Shown here one piece after another: positions 1-6,964 of a DNA stretch of 14,762 nucleotides. The position numbers were made by a program, and so were the translations under genes. Position 1 is the stretch's first letter; each line of letters starts with the position of its first letter. The DNA comes from a virus (lineage: Duplodnaviria; Heunggongvirae; Uroviricota; Caudoviricetes), in IMG/VR virus record IMGVR_UViG_2684622581_000004, positions 1 to 14,762 of that record; one strand, given 5' to 3'. The notes beneath the pieces are model-generated. The model made no database searches and was not told the DNA's origin. It was given only the letters and a program-made list of their open reading frames with translations.

Positions 1-1248
1 ATGGCACTGAATATTCCATTCAGAAATGCGTACTATCGTTTTGCATCCAGTTACTCATTTCTCTTTTTTATTTCCTGGTCGCTGTGGTGGTCGTTATACG
101 CTATTTGGCTGAAAGGACATCTAGGGTTGACAGGGACGGAATTAGGTACACTTTATTCGGTCAACCAGTTTACCAGCATTCTATTTATGATGTTCTACGG
201 CATCGTTCAGGATAAACTCGGTCTGAAGAAACCGCTCATCTGGTGTATGAGTTTCATCCTGGTCTTGACCGGACCGTTTATGATTTACGTTTATGAACCG
301 TTACTGCAAAGCAATTTTTCTGTAGGTCTAATTCTGGGGGCGCTCTTTTTTGGCCTGGGGTATCTGGCGGGATGCGGTTTGCTTGACAGCTTCACCGAAA
401 AAATGGCGCGAAATTTTCATTTCGAATATGGAACAGCGCGCGCCTGGGGATCTTTTGGCTATGCTATTGGCGCGTTCTTTGCCGGCATATTTTTTAGTAT
501 CAGTCCCCATATCAACTTCTGGTTGGTCTCGCTATTTGGCGCTGTATTTATGATGATCAACATGTGTTTTAAAGATAAGGATCACCAGTGCGTAGCGGCG
601 GATGCGGGAGGGGTAAAAAAAGAGGATTTTATCGCAGTTTTCAAGGATCGAAACTTCTGGGTTTTCGTCATATTTATTGTGGGGACGTGGTCTTTCTATA
701 ACATTTTTGATCAACAACTTTTTCCTGTCTTTTATGCAGGTTTATTCGAATCACACGATGTAGGAACGCGCCTGTATGGTTATCTCAACTCATTCCAGGT
801 GGTACTCGAAGCGCTATGCATGGCGATTATTCCTTTCTTTGTGAATCGGGTAGGGCCAAAAAATGCATTACTTATCGGTGTTGTGATTATGGCGTTGCGT
901 ATCCTTTCCTGCGCGCTGTTCGTTAACCCCTGGATTATTTCATTAGTGAAGCTGTTACATGCTATTGAGGTTCCACTTTGTGTCATATCCGTCTTCAAAT
1001 ACAGCGTGGCAAATTTTGATAAGCGCCTGTCGTCGACGATCTTTCTGATTGGTTTTCAAATTGCCAGTTCGCTTGGGATTGTGCTGCTTTCAACGCCGAC
1101 TGGGATACTCTTTGACCACGCAGGCTACCAGACAGTTTTCTTCGCAATTTCGGGTATTGTCTGCCTGATGTTGCTATTTGGTATTTTCTTCTTGAGTAAA
1201 AAACGCGAGCAAATAGTTATGGAAACGCCTGTACCTTCAGCAATATAG
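1..1248 (+). CDS. cscB: Sucrose:H+ symporter (oligosaccharide:H+ symporter, LacY family, MFS)
   Basis: 415-aa ORF, highly hydrophobic with 12-TM-like pattern; N-terminus MALNIPFRNAYYRF... matches my recollection of E. coli CscB; clear LacY-family resemblance. Stop TAG at 1246-1248. Confidence 0.85.
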   Translation: MALNIPFRNAYYRFASSYSFLFFISWSLWWSLYAIWLKGHLGLTGTELGTLYSVNQFTSILFMMFYGIVQDKLGLKKPLIWCMSFILVLTGPFMIYVYEPLLQSNFSVGLILGALFFGLGYLAGCGLLDSFTEKMARNFHFEYGTARAWGSFGYAIGAFFAGIFFSISPHINFWLVSLFGAVFMMINMCFKDKDHQCVAADAGGVKKEDFIAVFKDRNFWVFVIFIVGTWSFYNIFDQQLFPVFYAGLFESHDVGTRLYGYLNSFQVVLEALCMAIIPFFVNRVGPKNALLIGVVIMALRILSCALFVNPWIISLVKLLHAIEVPLCVISVFKYSVANFDKRLSSTIFLIGFQIASSLGIVLLSTPTGILFDHAGYQTVFFAISGIVCLMLLFGIFFLSKKREQIVMETPVPSAI

Positions 1249-3430: not shown

Positions 3431-4255
3431 TCAGGCGGTGAAAGTACCAATAAAGGTTTCTACTTTGCTGTCTTTGAACTTCTCAACAAGCAGATCACGA
3501 AATTCGTTAGCCATTTCCTCCTGCACTGCTTCCAGCTGAATAATGCGTAGTACCAGTACAGGACGATCGCCAGTGATAATGCTGAGGCGTAATTTAAACG
3601 GACGTTCTTTCAGACCTTCAAACGGAACGCATTTAAATTCAAATGCCACTGGCATAATGTCTTTGGTCTTCGCTTCGACAGACTCCATCAGGGAGCGTTT
3701 GCCGCTGAAGTCATTATCTTCAAAATCAGCTGTCTGGTTCGCTTCAATTGTGATTTTACGGATCGCCGCAGCCGCTTTGGTTGCCTGAATGGCGTCACCA
3801 TTAGCATCAAAGCCCACAAGGTAGTCGGCCCAGTCTTCAATCCATTCTGCCAGTGACTTCTGGGAGTTACGCTCGCCGTTAACAGACAACAGGGCAGAGA
3901 ACGGTGCTGTCTTTTTCAGTTTGAGAGTGGCGGTGTTATCTGCGTGACCTGGTTCATCAATAGTACCCAGGTTAAGCACACTGACGGCTCGCATATTATC
4001 GGCATCGATAAAGCAGCGGGTGCCTTCATCTGCAAGATCTTTAGAATAACGGGTAAAGTCATCGATGCTGGCAGTGGAAAGCGCACCACGGAAACGGAAG
4101 CGATTTAAATTAAATTTTTCCAGATCATGAATGCGGAAATTCTCAGGCAATGCCACAGCATCGGCACCAATCTTACTGATAATTTCATTAACACCCTGAG
4201 CAGAAATAAGGGCATGGATTTGATTAATTGTGGTTGCGTCTAAGTTCTGAGACAT
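3431..4255 (-). CDS. yfdQ: DUF2303-family prophage protein (YfdQ-like, 274 aa)
   Basis: 274-aa ORF with GAGGA RBS; size and neighbourhood match K-12 yfdQ as I recall it. Confidence 0.6.
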
Positions 4256-4320: not shown

Positions 4321-4683
4321 TTAACGACCTGCTGCGCGGAGTTTTCCGTCAGGCTCACCGGCAAGAGTCAGTAATTGTCCCTGGTCTTCCTGCAGAATAG
4401 TCAGGCGACCACCGCGATTGACATACATCGGCGTTTCGGTGGTGTCTTCTTCGGAAATTTTCCCGCGGTTAGTCGGGCGAACATATGAGAGTTTGTGTTT
4501 GATTTTCACTCGGTTCTCATCAAACGGTTCGATTTCTAGGTTGAGCGAGACCTTACCTTTGGTTCTCGTGTTCATCACACCGGAAGCGACTTCACTGAGA
4601 ACTGCGCCGATTTTGGTTTCAAATACGCCGCCGTCCAGCTCCCCGATAAATGCCTGCACATCAGTACTGCGTTCGCTAGCCAT
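4321..4683 (-). CDS. yfdP: Hypothetical prophage protein (YfdP-like, 120 aa)
   Basis: Start at ATG 4683-4681 with GAGGAG RBS 7 nt upstream; the 226-aa extension to 5001 runs through GC-rich Pro/Arg-rich sequence and is rejected. Confidence 0.55.
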   Translation of the reverse strand: MASERSTDVQAFIGELDGGVFETKIGAVLSEVASGVMNTRTKGKVSLNLEIEPFDENRVKIKHKLSYVRPTNRGKISEEDTTETPMYVNRGGRLTILQEDQGQLLTLAGEPDGKLRAAGR

Positions 4684-5151
4684 TTTGCTGCTCCTCATCA
4701 TATCGACCCTGCAAGGTCGGTTAGTTTCTCCACAAAACAGAGAAGAACACCTGCGGTGACTGCCGCCCGGATGGATTGGGTTATGAGCCCGTCGTCCGGT
4801 GATGCTCTTCTCTGTTTTGTAAAAAGGACGGTACCAGCCGGAAGCAAGGGTACAAGCTGGTACCGCCAAGACTACACACAGCATAAAGTTGTGGTGCCGG
4901 GTGCCTCCCGGTGCCTGGCGAAGGTTGCACACCAGGCGGGTGGGTATCCACAGAAGGTCGACTGTCAGCCTCAACCTTAACCCGCGTGCGCTGAGCCGCA
5001 TTCACCACAACGCTAAGGATTCTCTCTGGTTGAAAATACTTAGCTGTTATGTGCCTGCTTTTAGCCACATCAGGCGAGGTGGACCTAGTTATTCCCCAAC
5101 AACAAGGATTCGGTTAATCTGGTTATCCCCAACAACGCAAAAGGAAAAGAA
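4684..5151. other. GC-rich, hairpin-dense noncoding island (candidate structured ncRNA or cis-regulatory leader)
   Basis: No credible ORF in six frames; 15-bp perfect inverted repeat 4732-4746/4806-4820; 10-bp stem 4829-4838/4856-4865; further stems 4897-4911 and 4913-4938; direct repeats GTTATYCCCCAACAAC at 5088-5103 and 5121-5136; GC far higher than the flanking AT-rich genes. Confidence 0.45.
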
Positions 5152-5586
5152 ATGTCCGGTAATATCTATACGCTGTACAAATCCCACTGTGAAAATGTTG
5201 GAAAGTATCGGGGCATTGAAATCAGTGGGGTAGTGTCATCAGTCGAAATAAGCAAAGTTGAATCAAGGGCAACATTACTTACTCTTCTGGACCTTGTCTT
5301 ACATGAGCACCGGAAGAAATTCGGCACTCCCTATAATCAGTTGAATGGGAAAAAGGCTCTGGTTCACCTTATTCTGATGAAGCATCACTGGATGCCAAAA
5401 CAGATTAATGAGATGAAATTTGATGAACTTCTTCTTTCAATTCAGGATGAACTCACACTTGATAAAATAAGCGTAACCGCCCAGAAATTTTTAGATTATC
5501 GAGACTGGAGATCACAAATTCATCACTTTGATGATTTTGACGAAAATGAATGGGATCCTAATTTGTCTGCACAATATCTAAAGTAA
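5152..5586 (+). CDS. Orphan hypothetical protein (144 aa), AT-rich, opposite strand to the early-left operon
   Basis: ATG with AAGGA RBS 6 nt upstream; protein-like composition; no family recognised; markedly lower GC than neighbours. Confidence 0.55.
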   Translation: MSGNIYTLYKSHCENVGKYRGIEISGVVSSVEISKVESRATLLTLLDLVLHEHRKKFGTPYNQLNGKKALVHLILMKHHWMPKQINEMKFDELLLSIQDELTLDKISVTAQKFLDYRDWRSQIHHFDDFDENEWDPNLSAQYLK

Positions 5587-5764
5587 CATCCTGTGATAAA
5601 ACCGTGATTTCCTGATCCAGTTTTTTTAAGGAGTCTATTGTTTCCTGTCGATAAGACAGCACTTCACGAAGCTGGTTTATAGCTGCCAGCTTCTTTGTCA
5701 TCCACTCATAAATTTCCTCATCTGTGTAGCCAGGCGCGACGATTTTGGGTTCTGTTTTGTGCAT
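5558..5764 (-). CDS. Small acidic hypothetical protein (68 aa), first ORF downstream of PL
   Basis: ATG 5764-5762 with GAGGAG RBS at 7-nt spacing; overlaps the 3' end of the convergent 144-aa ORF by 29 nt; not Arg-rich, so not N-like. Confidence 0.5.
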   Translation of the reverse strand: MHKTEPKIVAPGYTDEEIYEWMTKKLAAINQLREVLSYRQETIDSLKKLDQEITVLSQDVTLDIVQTN

Positions 5765-5809
5765 TTCACATCTCCTCAAGTTATCAGTTACTTGTTGATG
5801 GGGACCAGA

Positions 5810-5823: not shown

Positions 5824-5846
5824 AGCGTCCTGTAGGGCGCTTTTTT
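5824..5846 (+). terminator. Stem-loop (AGCGTCC-tgta-GGGCGCT) followed by T6: intrinsic terminator on the plus strand, or boxB-like hairpin on the leftward transcript
   Basis: 7-bp stem with one G-U pair, 4-nt loop, U-run only on the plus strand; would end the transcript of the 144-aa gene. Confidence 0.5.
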
Positions 5847-5930
5847 GTTGCTAACGAATCATCCTGGACTTCATATGCCCCAGGCGGCTACTTCGTGGGC
5901 GTCCTGCCTGTTTGTTGTTTCTCTTGGGTA

Positions 5931-5959
5931 CATTATGTATCTCAAAGGTACATTGTCAA
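5931..5959 (-). promoter_or_regulatory. Leftward early promoter PL (-35 TTGACA, 16-17 bp spacer, -10 CATAAT) overlapped by GGTACA operator half-sites
   Basis: Minus-strand hexamers read directly; GGTACA at 5927-5932 and 5947-5952 resemble the OR half-sites. Confidence 0.55.
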
Positions 5960-5998: not shown

Positions 5999-6673
5999 TT
6001 AGGCTTTGATTTTGTATCTTCTTGGTTTTCCTGAGAAAATCACAGTACCAATTATAGAGCAATTACCGTTGATCTTGATGTAAGGCTCAGGCCAGTTTGG
6101 GTTTAACGCTTTGAGATAACGCTGTGTCCCATCTTCTATCAACCTTTTGAAGGTGGTTTCACCTGTATCGTGCATCAATGCAATAACGTCGTCACCGTGG
6201 CAGGCAGGTACTTCAGGATCGACAAAAATCATGTCTCCCGGGCGGTACTCATCAATCATTGAATCACCTATCACCCGCAAGATATAAGTCATTTCCCCAC
6301 AGGGTACAGGGCAGGGATACGTTTCTGCTGTGCTCAAATCAACCTCAGAATATCCAACTTCTTTCCATGCTCCGGCCTGTACCCATGATATGACAGGGAC
6401 TAATGTGATTTGTTTATTAGTGATTGAAACATCAGGTTTTTTTGTGATGTTCGTTGTCTGGTGTTCTTGATCGAGCCATCCGACAGGCAGGTCGAAACAT
6501 TTTTCGATGTGTCGTGCCATGCTGTCACCGATATTTTTAGTAGCACCATCTCCCATAAACCTGCTGGTCTGGGTTGGCTCGCGATCAATCATAGTGGCAA
6601 AGGAAGAATTCCCGCCAACACCATCTCTCAGTTTTCTGGCGTTAGACCGCCGGATGTCATGGATTGTTTTCAT
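5999..6673 (-). CDS. cI: CI-like prophage repressor (N-terminal HTH, C-terminal S24 LexA-type autopeptidase)
   Basis: 224 aa; S24 catalytic Ser in VIGDSM and Lys in TFKRL; Ala-Gly candidate cleavage site (VQAGAW); divergent from a cro-like gene. Confidence 0.85.
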   Translation of the reverse strand: MKTIHDIRRSNARKLRDGVGGNSSFATMIDREPTQTSRFMGDGATKNIGDSMARHIEKCFDLPVGWLDQEHQTTNITKKPDVSITNKQITLVPVISWVQAGAWKEVGYSEVDLSTAETYPCPVPCGEMTYILRVIGDSMIDEYRPGDMIFVDPEVPACHGDDVIALMHDTGETTFKRLIEDGTQRYLKALNPNWPEPYIKINGNCSIIGTVIFSGKPRRYKIKA

Positions 6674-6688
6674 AACGAAATTAAAACC

Positions 6689-6757
6689 CTTGTACCGTTA
6701 AGGTACAAGTATCTTGAAGGTTCATTTCAATCATGTAATATGTACACCGGAGGTACA
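6689..6757. promoter_or_regulatory. OR operator region: palindrome CTTGTACC-N5-GGTACAAG (6689-6709) and palindrome TGTACA-N5-GGTACA (6741-6757)
   Basis: Perfect inverted repeats read directly, flanking and overlapping the PR hexamers. Confidence 0.6.
6714..6741 (+). promoter_or_regulatory. Rightward early promoter PR (-35 TTGAAG, 16-bp spacer, -10 TAATAT)
   Basis: Hexamers read directly, 23 nt upstream of the cro ATG; second operator overlaps -10/+1. Confidence 0.55.
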
Positions 6758-6763
6758 TATCGT

Positions 6764-6964
6764 ATGAAAGCGTATTGGGACTCTTTAACCAAAGAACAGC
6801 AGGGCGAGTTGGCCGGAAAAGTTGGCTCAACACCTGGCTACTTACGGCTGGTTTTCAATGGCTATAAAAAAGCCAGTTTTGTGCTGGCTAAAAAACTTGA
6901 GCAATGCACGTCAGGTGCAATTACGAAATCTGACTTAAGACCGGATATCTATCCGAAAGATTAG
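6764..6964 (+). CDS. cro: Cro-like small HTH regulator (66 aa)
   Basis: Divergent from cI across the operator region; GGAGG upstream; the 167-aa ORF-track version is an antisense extension into cI and is rejected. Confidence 0.6.
   Translation: MKAYWDSLTKEQQGELAGKVGSTPGYLRLVFNGYKKASFVLAKKLEQCTSGAITKSDLRPDIYPKD

Follow-up and report, generated by a model that had tools for sequence, protein, structure and literature searches.

Several described prophage RNAs resemble parts of the locus reported here. STnc100 (RF02076) overlaps the Hfq-bound EcOnc27/sRNA103 (PMC12711010), and its copies in EDL933 are transcribed, one of them with Northern confirmation (PMC5331693). Canonical STnc100 lies downstream of stx2B, between stxB2 and an esterase gene, in the late region from Q/stx to the lysis genes. 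PasD1 and PasD2 of EPEC E2348/69, homologues of EcOnc13, are encoded in the late region near a holin gene. They are Hfq-dependent sRNAs of ~172 nt on Northern blots, and both the seed and the RIL-seq chimeras fall within the last ~50 nt at the 3′ end, before the terminator (PMC8550237); the link between PasD and STnc100 was made previously (Zhu, Shabalina, Storz, bioRxiv 10.64898/2026.05.13.724894). DicF (RF00039) of the Qin dicB operon has a short single-stranded 5′ seed (UUUCUGGUGACGUUU), a hairpin of the form UUGGCGGUA(U/C)CAG...CCGCC and a U tail, and is encoded ahead of early genes within a lambdoid prophage operon that is expressed early and controlled by the repressor. A fourth RNA, HK022 put, has ~70 nt and two stems and directly follows PL or PR (PMC9378689).

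The locus studied here is an island at 4684-5151 of the window, by which we mean the whole 14,762-nucleotide stretch of IMG/VR record IMGVR_UViG_2684622581_000004. The earlier note had proposed a single undescribed structured RNA or regulatory element and named no strand. The region does encode structured RNA, but instead of one element we found three separable modules, ordered differently in other phages, each of which reads on the minus strand. This is the sense of all the inverted repeats and the strand of the prophage early-left operon. Two modules are relatives of known prophage sRNAs, and for the third we found no description. Thus, the term "undescribed" suits the third module (the Y element) and a pseudoknot in the first, and does not suit the first module itself, which is a relative of STnc100/PasD/EcOnc27, or the second, which is DicF-like. 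We consider it probable that the island is a non-coding minus-strand leader of the early-left operon in which three conserved, independent RNA modules occur in tandem, modules 1 and 2 forming a composite sRNA and module 3 a Y-shaped leader. The features are as follows.

5088-5103 and 5122-5136, no strand assigned: imperfect direct repeats, GTTATTCCCCAACAAC and GTTAT-CCCCAACAAC, with a 1-nt indel; not parts of the RNA
5012-5044, minus: P0 hairpin, GCUAAGUAUUUUC/GAGAAUCCUUAGC, directly 5′ of the core, from an inverted repeat and the MFE fold
4889-5010, minus: type-B STnc100-like core (module 1), a multi-helix junction with a pseudoknot
5003-5010 with 4889-4896, minus: helix P1
4984-4999, minus: helix P2
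4980-4983 with 4938-4941, minus: helix Pc
4972-4978 (AAGGUUG) with the P4 loop at 4921-4927 (CAACCUU), minus: core pseudoknot
4913-4937, minus: helix P4
4897-4911, minus: helix P5
4892-4913, minus: invariant 22-mer CACCGGGAGGCACCCGGCACCA, made up of the P5 hairpin CCGGG-AGGCA-CCCGG and the first part of the 3′ strand of P1
4821-4888, minus: DicF-like sRNA module (module 2), with seed, terminator hairpin and U tract
4868-4883, minus: conserved single-stranded seed UGCUGUGUGUAGUCUU
4827-4867, minus: intrinsic terminator hairpin with a perfect 10-bp stem
4821-4825, minus: U tract, UUUUU, which follows the hairpin on the minus strand only
4732-4820, minus: Y-shaped leader (module 3), with an 18-bp outer stem, an arm tipped by the anticodon-arm mimic and a variable arm GCGG/CCGC
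4778-4790, minus: anticodon-arm mimic GGGCUCAUAACCC, a stem of three G:C pairs with the 7-nt loop CUCAUAA
4684-4731, minus: remainder of the yfdP 5′ UTR, with conserved GUGGAGAAAC, a small hairpin at ~4703-4719 and the Shine-Dalgarno sequence GAGGAG at 4691-4696
4681-4683, minus: ATG of yfdP

All the inverted repeats reported in the earlier note are present. The longest (4732-4756/4796-4820) spans 25 nt with 84% complementarity, the outer 15 nt being perfect on direct reading, and two others are perfect over 10 nt (4829-4838/4856-4865) and 9 nt (4888-4896/5003-5011); the stems at 4897-4911 and 4913-4937 are the RNA helices P5 and P4. The minus-strand RNA of 4818-5041 folds with z = -2.84 (3 of 200 shuffles were as stable), and that of 4684-4830 with z = -5.84 (0 of 200), the MFE reported for the Y element being -60.6 kcal/mol. 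The GC content of the island is indeed above that of the flanking genes (0.54-0.56 vs. 0.36-0.44), and values as high occur elsewhere in the window. The separate origin proposed on this basis is unneeded because the G+C-rich helices suffice. A retron, a type III toxin-antitoxin array (both already dismissed in the earlier note) and a CRISPR-like array were rejected, as there are neither tandem repeats nor a reverse transcriptase, and a search of the window for tRNA and tmRNA using ARAGORN returned nothing. Only in position does the island resemble HK022 put, each being a cis RNA of early operons in a lambdoid phage that lacks N; its fold differs and it begins ~870 nt from PL. Comparison of the conserved leader after PL (5851-5919) with the HK022 immunity region showed no sequence similarity.

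The STnc100-like core and the DicF-like module

The checks named in the earlier note included an Rfam covariance-model search and a search for compensatory base changes in homologues. At gathering thresholds the window has no Rfam match, and matches emerged only in E-value mode. Positions 4818-5041 of the minus strand align to the entire STnc100 model (1-206 of 206) with 43.4 bits (E = 5e-8); the gathering score, 47 bits, is not reached, and the 933W copy scores 207.7 bits. P0 is covered by the 5′ portion of this Rfam alignment; ST64B has another hairpin at this site (UAAGAG/CUCUUA). An equally sub-threshold match occurs in SfIV, ST64B, phiES15, 118970_sal3, the P1-like SJ46 and K-12 Qin, in the last of these between dicF and dicB.

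The core and the RNAs of Rfam STnc100/PasD/EcOnc27 are relatives that have diverged. As in STnc100, the order is P1, UGGUGAAU, P2, P4, P5, linker and terminator, and both share the 22-mer CACCGGGAGGCACCCGGCACCA and the pseudoknot that joins the P4 loop to the segment behind P2. The 22-mer occurs exactly in at least 120 viral contigs from at least 20 sequence clusters. The two differ in P2, as the STnc100 hairpin CCCCU-GUGCGG-AGGGG is absent and the window has GCGGC-UCAGC-GCaCGC instead ("type B"), and the core has the extra 4-bp Pc. They also differ in location, the window copy being in the early-left operon between repressor/PL and yfdP, and in the 3′ module, which in the window is DicF-like. 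We assign the core to a "type-B" subfamily that is shared with ST64B, phiES15, P1-like phages and the dicF-dicB spacer of E. coli K-12. PasD1 is at a similar distance from the STnc100 model (37.7 bits). It resembles the window in keeping the pseudoknot of the structured 5′ core (AAUGAUC/GAUCAUU) and in having its seed in the 3′ linker before the terminator. Unlike the window, PasD1 lacks the P5 3′ strand and has its own promoter, with a transcript start 2 nt before P1. The window does not have the PasD seed UGUGAG in its linker before the terminator, which reads CUUUAUGCUGUGUGUAGUCUU.

Homologues show covariation in support of each helix, with compensatory changes in the Y stem, in the pseudoknot and in the core helices P1, P4 and P5. 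Among 40 diverse members, P1 is 93%, P2 99% and P5 100% paired, with compensatory changes in P1 and P5; one of these is the CCUGG/CCAGG form of P5 in the Qin/dicB group. The outer three pair columns of P2 switch from C-G to G-C in 9-10 of the 40 sequences, and its loop keeps GCG. P4 is highly variable (42 different 5′ strands among 50 representatives). In the MAFFT alignment of full-length type-B cores the variable middle was misaligned and RNAalifold recovered only P1, P2 and P5, and counts over fixed columns of the trimmed alignment underestimate Pc, P4 and the pseudoknot as loop lengths vary. We used instead a register-free test with permuted partners. For the 50 representatives, pseudoknot complementarity was 6.17 with the own partner and 4.29 ± 0.14 with permuted ones, and none of 20,000 permutations reached the observed value. 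The pseudoknot is thus a family-wide feature as derived in the present analysis, rather than a curated one, and is apparently undescribed. A scan of 596 Gb of genome contigs with the 14-mer GTGGTGAATGCGGC gave chance matches in unrelated GC-rich genomes.

With its pseudoknotted junction and invariant P5 loop, the core may be a ligand- or protein-binding domain and not a passive 5′ structure. A pseudoknotted junction of 120 nt is unusual baggage for a simple base-pairing sRNA, and another main function for the core is possible.

Module 2 has the architecture of DicF, with a single-stranded 5′ seed, a terminator hairpin of the GGCGGUAUCAG type, a U tail and a location in a repressor-controlled early operon. 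The Rfam match to DicF itself (4826-4880, minus strand) is weak and not significant alone (19.4 bits, E = 0.14; gathering score 48). The assignment is bridged by two intermediates, L144 (41.1 bits) and L191 (38.1 bits), which have the seed and hairpin of the window at the position of DicF, followed by a core and then by kilR or a different gene. Qin likewise has a type-B core alongside DicF; the order there is sRNA then core, whereas in the window it is core then sRNA, and the seeds differ (UUUCUGGUGACGUUU vs. UGCUGUGUGUAGUCUU). The seed UGCUGUGUGUAGUCUU is kept in phages of E. coli, Salmonella and Cronobacter that have differing terminators and upstream sequences. No trans target was predicted for the module. 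In a duplex comparison with ftsZ (RNAduplex, -70 to +40) it performed no better than shuffled sequences (fraction 0.53), in an assay that did not separate DicF itself (0.15).

The Y-shaped leader and its initiator-tRNA mimic

The Y element always comes after a DicF-like terminator, and the first genes behind it are YfdP-like, RdgC-like or YfdR-like. The RNAalifold consensus of 14 diverse homologues gives the Y fold. In this fold 97.1% of cells are paired and 8 pairs have changed on both sides, values reached by 0 of 500 shuffles, and slid controls are 36-52% paired. [quoted passage not shown] Its three G:C pairs never vary, so covariation cannot confirm this small stem. The anticodon arm is all that the Y element and metY have in common, and ARAGORN found no cloverleaf.

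Searching Rfam with the Y element up to E = 10 gave noise only (Hairpin ribozyme, 14.5 bits, E = 6.2), a motif scan gave many 14-mer matches attributable to chance, and literature searches on initiator-tRNA mimics in phage leaders returned nothing relevant. The element is therefore apparently undescribed, and we know of no described mimic of initiator tRNA. The textbook case of a tRNA anticodon-arm mimic in an mRNA leader is the thrS operator, which is bound by ThrRS. The Y element is like such mimics in presenting an exact copy of an anticodon stem-loop in a hairpin just upstream of a ribosome-binding site. It is unlike them in that it precedes unrelated genes, so it is not an autoregulator of a synthetase gene.

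As the tip is an exact initiator-tRNA anticodon arm, recognition by a usual reader of that arm is implied, namely MetRS, the 30S P site or a VapC-like anticodon-arm nuclease. VapC toxins cleave tRNA-fMet within its anticodon arm (PMC5408214). Such toxins are known from Shigella and Salmonella, the hosts of SfII/SfIV/SfV and of ST64B. The Y element may be a decoy or sensor for host readers of the arm such as these toxins; were the decoy reading true, the Y RNA would be an anti-defence device. Alternatively, it may dock in the 30S P site or on MetRS and so control initiation on the first early gene. We only tentatively regard the Y leader as an undescribed class of phage RNA that presents an exact copy of the anticodon arm of initiator tRNA where the early-left operon begins and serves as a decoy, sensor or docking site, with the core perhaps as a binding domain.

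Proposed expression of the cassette and competing readings

In the reading that we prefer, the early-left operon would be transcribed from right to left on the minus strand, toward yfdP-yfdQ-...-xis/int. By analogy with their relatives, modules 1 and 2 are most likely a DicF/PasD-style Hfq-dependent sRNA that derives from the early-left transcript and ends at the terminator. This composite RNA would have about 190-225 nt. Its 5′ part would be a compact STnc100/PasD-type core in which a multi-helix junction is locked by the loop-to-junction pseudoknot, a folded domain that may stabilize the RNA or bind a partner. Its 3′ part, with the DicF-like seed UGCUGUGUGUAGUCUU and the intrinsic terminator with U tail, would bind Hfq and base-pair in trans with host or phage mRNAs, as is suggested by PasD1/2, EcOnc27 and DicF. 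A promoter scan gave no sigma-70 site just upstream of the core in the window, and none was seen there in ST64B; the RNA is therefore probably cut from, or terminated from, the repressor-controlled PL transcript. Module 3 would be carried on transcripts that read through the terminator, as the 5′ UTR of whichever gene comes first in the operon, and RNase III could plausibly act on its long stem. The analysis itself shows the strand, the non-coding nature, the covarying secondary structures, the family relationships and distribution and the modularity, whereas function, including transcription, processing, Hfq dependence, targets and the binding partner of the mimic, is inferred.

The core lies ~900 nt downstream of PL (5925-5958). 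A transcript from PL would have to pass a small ORF on the minus strand, a plus-strand gene in convergent orientation and a terminator-like hairpin at ~5836-5858 that was called a terminator by SfV's annotators, and the route from PL to the core is thus not simple. By eye we noted GAGAAT, CATAAC and TTAACC-18-AATAAC as promoter candidates, all too weak to claim. Some type-A clusters and PasD1 have a promoter directly upstream of the core, unlike the window.

A function in cis is conceivable but doubtful. The core, perhaps with the Y element, would then be an attenuator, a riboswitch-like sensor or an antitermination/processing platform that gates the 4827-4867 terminator, and the sRNA would be a by-product. 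The element is always oriented as the downstream operon is and occupies the spacer or 5′ UTR ahead of kil, kilR, dicB, tciA or yfdP, and some clusters (including L158 and L199) consist of a core with its own promoter and no obvious terminator, followed by an RBS and a gene. The pseudoknotted junction with its invariant nucleotides resembles a ligand- or protein-binding fold, and type-A P2 (CCCCU-GUGCGG-AGGGG) and the terminator (CCCCU-CUCC-GGAGGGG) use nearly the same strands, so that swapping is possible. However, inspection of the window revealed no mutually exclusive terminator/antiterminator pairing of the core with its terminator, there is no Rfam riboswitch match, and the related RNAs build up as separate sRNA species that are bound by Hfq and have targets in trans. 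The downstream genes have no common functional theme, for which reason a metabolite riboswitch was rejected.

It is improbable that the cassette is a decaying relic, inherited by recombination and unexpressed in this prophage, as might be supposed from the absence of an upstream promoter and the presence of a moron between the core and PL. This moron is the plus-strand ECs1072-family gene (ATG at 5152). The direct repeats upstream of it are present as the earlier note had described, except that the second copy occupies 5122-5136 and has a 1-nt indel relative to the first. They occur only in phages with an ECs1072-family gene and belong to the module of that gene, and not to the RNA element in which they had been included. 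On the minus strand they read GUUGUUGGGGA(A)UAAC and look like incomplete copies of the 5′ end of the core itself, GUUGUGGUGAAU; a repeat search links 5000-5022 with 5094-5111 and 5125-5141 (two families). Such partial copies and the ECs1072-family gene do suggest rearrangement scars. Homology to SfV and SfII ends at 5082, and SfV, SfII and ST64B, which lack the moron, keep the same cassette. The helices and invariant motifs are all intact, and more than 2,300 of the 2,792 E. coli records that match the 468-nt stretch do so with 95% identity or more. Of 5,426 complete E. coli genomes, 2,782 (about half) contain the cassette or parts of it, as do phages of Shigella, Salmonella and Cronobacter and P1-like phage-plasmids. 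Its present annotation, if there is any, is as hypothetical or frameshifted proteins.

A DNA-level element, in which the repeats would be protein-binding sites (operators, or sites for recombination or replication) and not RNA structure, is very unlikely. The 8-mer GGTACAAG in the terminator loop (4849-4856) is, as had been noticed, identical to an operator half-site, that of the palindrome CTTGTACC-N4-GGTACAAG between the repressor and cro genes, and the direct repeats are 33-34 bp apart upstream of the ECs1072-family gene. The 8-mer is a lone half-site, however, and homologous terminators carry other loops. The compensatory changes in P1, P4, P5, the pseudoknot and the Y stem keep pairing and not sequence. 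G-U pairs in P1, P4 and the Y stem, which would be A-C mismatches on the opposite strand, are strand-specific, and a pseudoknot is meaningless in duplex DNA. GGTACC palindromes, which could also serve as binding sites, are seen inside the stem.

Hardly credible is a protein-coding island, whether as an extended YfdP (681 nt; SfIV gp34), as this plus ORF 4889-5233 (SfIV gp35) or as the PGAP "frameshifted hypothetical protein" at 4698-5008, for despite long stop-free stretches in several frames and these annotations by depositors and PGAP, PGAP itself needs a frameshift, and the homologue comparison revealed no conserved reading frame across the island. In the comparison with ST64B (331 nt, 78% identity), none of the six indels (1, 1, 20, 1, 1 and 2 nt) is a multiple of three, and substitutions per codon position number 16/14/18, without codon periodicity. 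Most indels relative to phiES15, SJ46 and Qin break the frame as well, and the ORFs of this region are thus shadows, in agreement with the earlier note. K-12 yfdP starts at the ATG at 4681-4683, and homology to K-12 begins only at AUGAUGAGGAGCAGCAAAAUG, ~20 nt upstream of it. The K-12 sequence beyond this point is unrelated and has replication-gene iterons, and the stretch is therefore absent from CPS-53 of K-12, as had been supposed.

Possible meaning for prophage sRNAs and translation initiation

The Rfam thresholds for STnc100 and DicF miss diverged members such as these two modules. STnc100/PasD RNAs are abundant Hfq-bound sRNAs of EHEC and EPEC without an established function, and the pseudoknotted core provides a defined fold that is testable by mutation. 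The core also connects the STnc100/PasD family with the classic K-12 locus dicF-dicB, which is readily accessible to genetics. The initiator-tRNA mimic is relevant to the control or protection of translation initiation by temperate phages at induction.

Prophage setting and non-coding character of the island

The window comes from an SfV/SfIV/ST64B-like lambdoid prophage, of which it covers the integration-proximal early-left, immunity and replication region. E. coli APEC O78 has an identical copy, adjoining a tRNA-Thr and an integrase. The island is 97.7% identical to phage SfIV, and matches to it occur in 2,782 of the 5,426 complete genomes of E. coli. The features of the region are:

5999-6673, minus strand: LexA-family repressor
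~5925-5958, minus strand: terminator of the repressor gene, then PL (TTGACA-17-ATAATG, TGTACC-type operators on both sides)
5558-5779, minus strand: small ORF of 73 codons, after PL
5152-5586, plus strand: ECs1072-family gene
4684-5151, minus strand: the island
4321-4683, minus strand: yfdP
3431-4255, minus strand: yfdQ

As the yfdP ATG lies at 4681-4683, the island starts at the first base upstream of this gene. At its left end the window has a 415-codon ORF (1-1248, plus strand; counterpart at 1537-2655 of the APEC O78 prophage, L001). The APEC O78 prophage, otherwise identical, has a minus-strand integrase adjoining tRNA-Thr at that position, so that the integration or O-antigen-modification modules of the two are not the same. 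Operator palindromes of the types CTTGTACC-TTAA-GGTACAAG and ATATGTACC-TCCG-GTGTACATAT occur in the repressor/cro gap (6690-6770), and PL is likewise flanked by TGTACC half-sites.

The earlier note described a GC-rich, non-coding island dense in inverted repeats. The G+C content is ~55%, compared with 36-44% in the neighbours, and every inverted repeat listed is present. The alignment with ST64B (331 nt, 78% identity) contains six indels, all of lengths indivisible by three, and the substitutions, distributed 16/14/18 over the codon positions, have no codon periodicity; the pattern is similar in more distant homologues. Because the region is not coding, three annotations in the databases are artefacts: SfIV gp34 (locus L002), a 681-nt yfdP with an N-terminal “extension”; SfIV gp35, a plus-strand ORF overlapping the RNA; and a PGAP “frameshifted hypothetical protein” (L001, 5515-5825). 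As the note had supposed, the whole island is missing from CPS-53 of K-12.

The STnc100-like core and its pseudoknot

The RNA is on the minus strand. No match was found in Rfam at curated thresholds. In E-value mode, the whole STnc100 model (RF02076) aligned to 4818-5041 (minus strand) with 43.4 bits (E = 5e-8), below the gathering score of 47. Equally sub-threshold are P1-like SJ46 (41.9 bits), phiES15 (40.6), SfIV (38.4), 118970_sal3 (37.5), ST64B (35.1) and PasD1 of EPEC (37.7); the canonical copy of 933W, downstream of stx2B, scores 207.7 bits. The 22-mer CACCGGGAGGCACCCGGCACCA occurs exactly in at least 120 IMG/VR contigs, which comprise at least 20 strongly differing sequence clusters. 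These share one plan: P1, AAU, P2, a short strand and a variable region, then P4, 1-2 nt, P5 and the return strand of P1. In the window (core at 4889-5010), the GTGGTG/CACCAC pair noted earlier is a real helix, the closing helix P1, and P5 and P4 correspond to the stems at 4897-4911 and 4913-4937, respectively. P2 occurs in two forms, the canonical type A and a type B (sampled as 30 distinct sequences) to which the window copy, ST64B, phiES15, P1-like phages and others belong.

Covariation was scored on a trimmed alignment of 40 sequences. Pairing is 93% in P1, which has four covarying pairs; the outer pairs of P2 are 99% paired and switch between C-G and G-C from type A to type B; and P5 is 100% paired, with CCGGG/CCCGG replaced by CCUGG/CCAGG in one group. 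P4 has 42 different 5′ strands in 50 representatives, and the GCG of the P2 loop is invariant in both types. The strand following P2 and the P4 loop are complementary in nearly all members and form a pseudoknot (AAGGUUG/CAACCUU in the window; GACUGACAAA/UUUGUCAGUC, CAGUUAA/UUAACUG, AAGGCUG/CAGCCUU, UGGUUAU/AUAACCA and CCAGUC/GACUGG in others). Its mean score is 6.17 with the own partner versus 4.29 ± 0.14 with permuted partners, and none of 20,000 permutations reached 6.17. The pairing is conserved in type A, type B and PasD1 (loci L008-L127), with 40 different 5′ strands in 50 representatives. It was not seen in the Rfam structure line or in the RNAalifold-based PasD/STnc100 preprint. Taken together, P1, P2, a short helix Pc, P4 and P5 meet in a compact junction, which the pseudoknot locks. 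Pc was read from representative sequences; its fixed-column count is low (~40% paired) because the register varies from cluster to cluster.

Some viral contigs (L015, L022, L039, L053, L062, L073, L078) encode two family members, 267-4,027 nt and often ~484 nt apart, in agreement with reports of multiple, linked PasA/PasD/STnc100 copies.

The DicF-like end and the dicF-dicB spacer of K-12

The core is followed by a DicF-like part (4821-4888). The perfect 10-bp hairpin of the earlier note, with a UUUUU tract behind it that exists solely on the minus strand, constitutes an intrinsic terminator, and the Rfam DicF model matches weakly at 4826-4880 (19.4 bits, E = 0.14). The match to an operator half-site reported in the loop of this hairpin was confirmed: the 8-mer GGTACAAG recurs in the sRNA terminator loop at 4849-4856. 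In two compared loci, L144 and L191, the DicF position is taken by an sRNA with DicF scores of 41.1 and 38.1 bits. It combines the 5′ sequence of the window module, GCUGUGUGUAGUCUU, with a GGCGG(U/C)A(U/C)CAG hairpin, and precedes a core and then a protein-coding gene, which in L144 is putatively kilR-like. This seed is also present in phiES15, in ST64B and in numerous viral contigs with other terminators and other upstream sequence. In PasD, the seed and RIL-seq chimeras map to the stretch directly before the terminator (PMC8550237, supplement). The window has a conserved single-stranded stretch at the same place, and we therefore infer an STnc100-type core joined to a DicF-type effector end.

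More diverged cores seem to exist upstream of DicF-like modules in L437 and L365 (mEp460-type). L437 has GGUGG-AGGCA-CCACC followed by GCCACAAC, a fully covaried P5, and mEp460-type phages have CCGG-AGAUCAGCA-CCGG followed by UCACCACAAC. By BLAST, the terminator and the Y-shaped leader described below are the sole parts that these loci share with the window.

No promoter is recognisable right before P1 in the window or ST64B, unlike PasD1 (TTGACT-17-TTAAAA) and several type-A clusters, which have one there. The core and DicF-like end would be made from the early-left transcript as an Hfq-dependent trans-acting sRNA. The main rival explanation is a cis action of the core on read-through.

Genuine DicF has a type-B core directly behind it, with dicB next, both in E. 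coli K-12 and in viral contig L130. The K-12 copies score 76.7 bits (DicF) and 34.4 bits (STnc100), and the core is complete (L353 1136-1309; MG1655 NC_000913.3 1649435-1649608). Its P1 is ~12 bp longer, ~20 bp in total (GUGAAUUUUGUGAUGUGGUG / CACUGCAUCACAAAAUUCAU), and the added pairs covary in L191. The dicB Shine-Dalgarno lies 6 nt past the end of the core. This core is not annotated in the K-12 record, and the searched passages of a recent paper on dicBF regulation do not mention it.

The Y-shaped leader and the flanking region

The 15-bp stem enclosing 59 nt, also listed in the earlier note, is a structure (Y element, 4732-4820) conserved in many prophage contigs, always with a DicF-like terminator directly before it. 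In three loci (L131, L354, L417) it precedes a core rather than following an sRNA, and therefore the three modules shuffle. The consensus, obtained with RNAalifold from 14 diverse copies, has an 18-bp outer stem, an arm CCGGG...CCCGG with a small hairpin at its tip, and a variable arm. In it, pairing reaches 97.1% of cells and both sides have changed in eight pairs, values somewhat favoured by deriving structure and score from one alignment; none of 500 shuffles reached them, and slid partners gave 36-52% pairing. The window copy folds with -60.6 kcal/mol (z = -5.84). We found neither an Rfam match nor a description in the literature for this element.

The small hairpin, GGGCUCAUAACCC, combines the loop CUCAUAA with a stem of three G:C pairs and is almost invariant in homologues. 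Comparison with K-12 metY showed that it matches the anticodon stem-loop of initiator tRNA-fMet exactly; a run of three G:C pairs is the hallmark of initiator tRNAs. The gene right after the Y element is YfdP-like, RdgC-like or YfdR-like, and given this variety we regard the element as a general operon leader that is not yfdP-specific. It may serve processing and translation control. As VapC of S. flexneri and S. enterica cleaves exactly the tRNA-fMet anticodon arm (PMC5408214), a role as a VapC decoy is also conceivable.

The two direct repeats upstream of the ECs1072-family gene are present (5088-5103, 5122-5136), but differ by a 1-nt indel and are not exact copies. They sit past the end of SfV/SfII homology (5082), occur only in phages with this gene and, read on the minus strand, resemble the 5′ end of the core (GUUGUUGGGGAAUAAC vs GUUGUGGUGAAUGCGG; repeat families D1 and D2). 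In our reading they are recombination scars or belong to the upstream region of the inserted gene, outside the RNA proper. Six phages have the gene at 100% identity, its only other relatives (~30% identical) being in ST64B and Klebsiella phages, and it is convergent with the minus-strand ORF at 5558-5779 (29-nt overlap). It looks like a recent moron insertion into a PL leader that is intact in ST64B.

Right after PL is a ~65-nt leader (ACAGGCAGGACGCCCACGAAGUAGCCGCCUGGGGCAUAUGAAGUCCAGGAUGAUUCG; 5851-5919, minus strand) that is 80-98% conserved in Escherichia, Shigella, Salmonella, Citrobacter, Pantoea, Yersinia, Pectobacterium and Klebsiella phages, with shorter matches in phages of Aeromonas and Providencia. 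No Rfam family covers it. In position and size it is like HK022 putL, but without sequence similarity to the HK022 immunity region. Between it and the small ORF (~5836-5858) is a plus-strand hairpin, GCGTCC-TGTA-GGGCGC then TTTTTTG, annotated as a terminator by the SfV depositors. It would terminate transcripts of the ECs1072-family gene, and on the minus strand is a weak attenuator candidate.

In combination, the suggestion of an undescribed structured RNA holds for structure, for the Y element and for the pseudoknot, and otherwise fails for the core and DicF-like end, which have relatives in STnc100/PasD and DicF. Apparently new here are the Y element, for which the literature yielded no description, and a diverged, differently placed member of the STnc100/PasD family fused to a DicF-like end.
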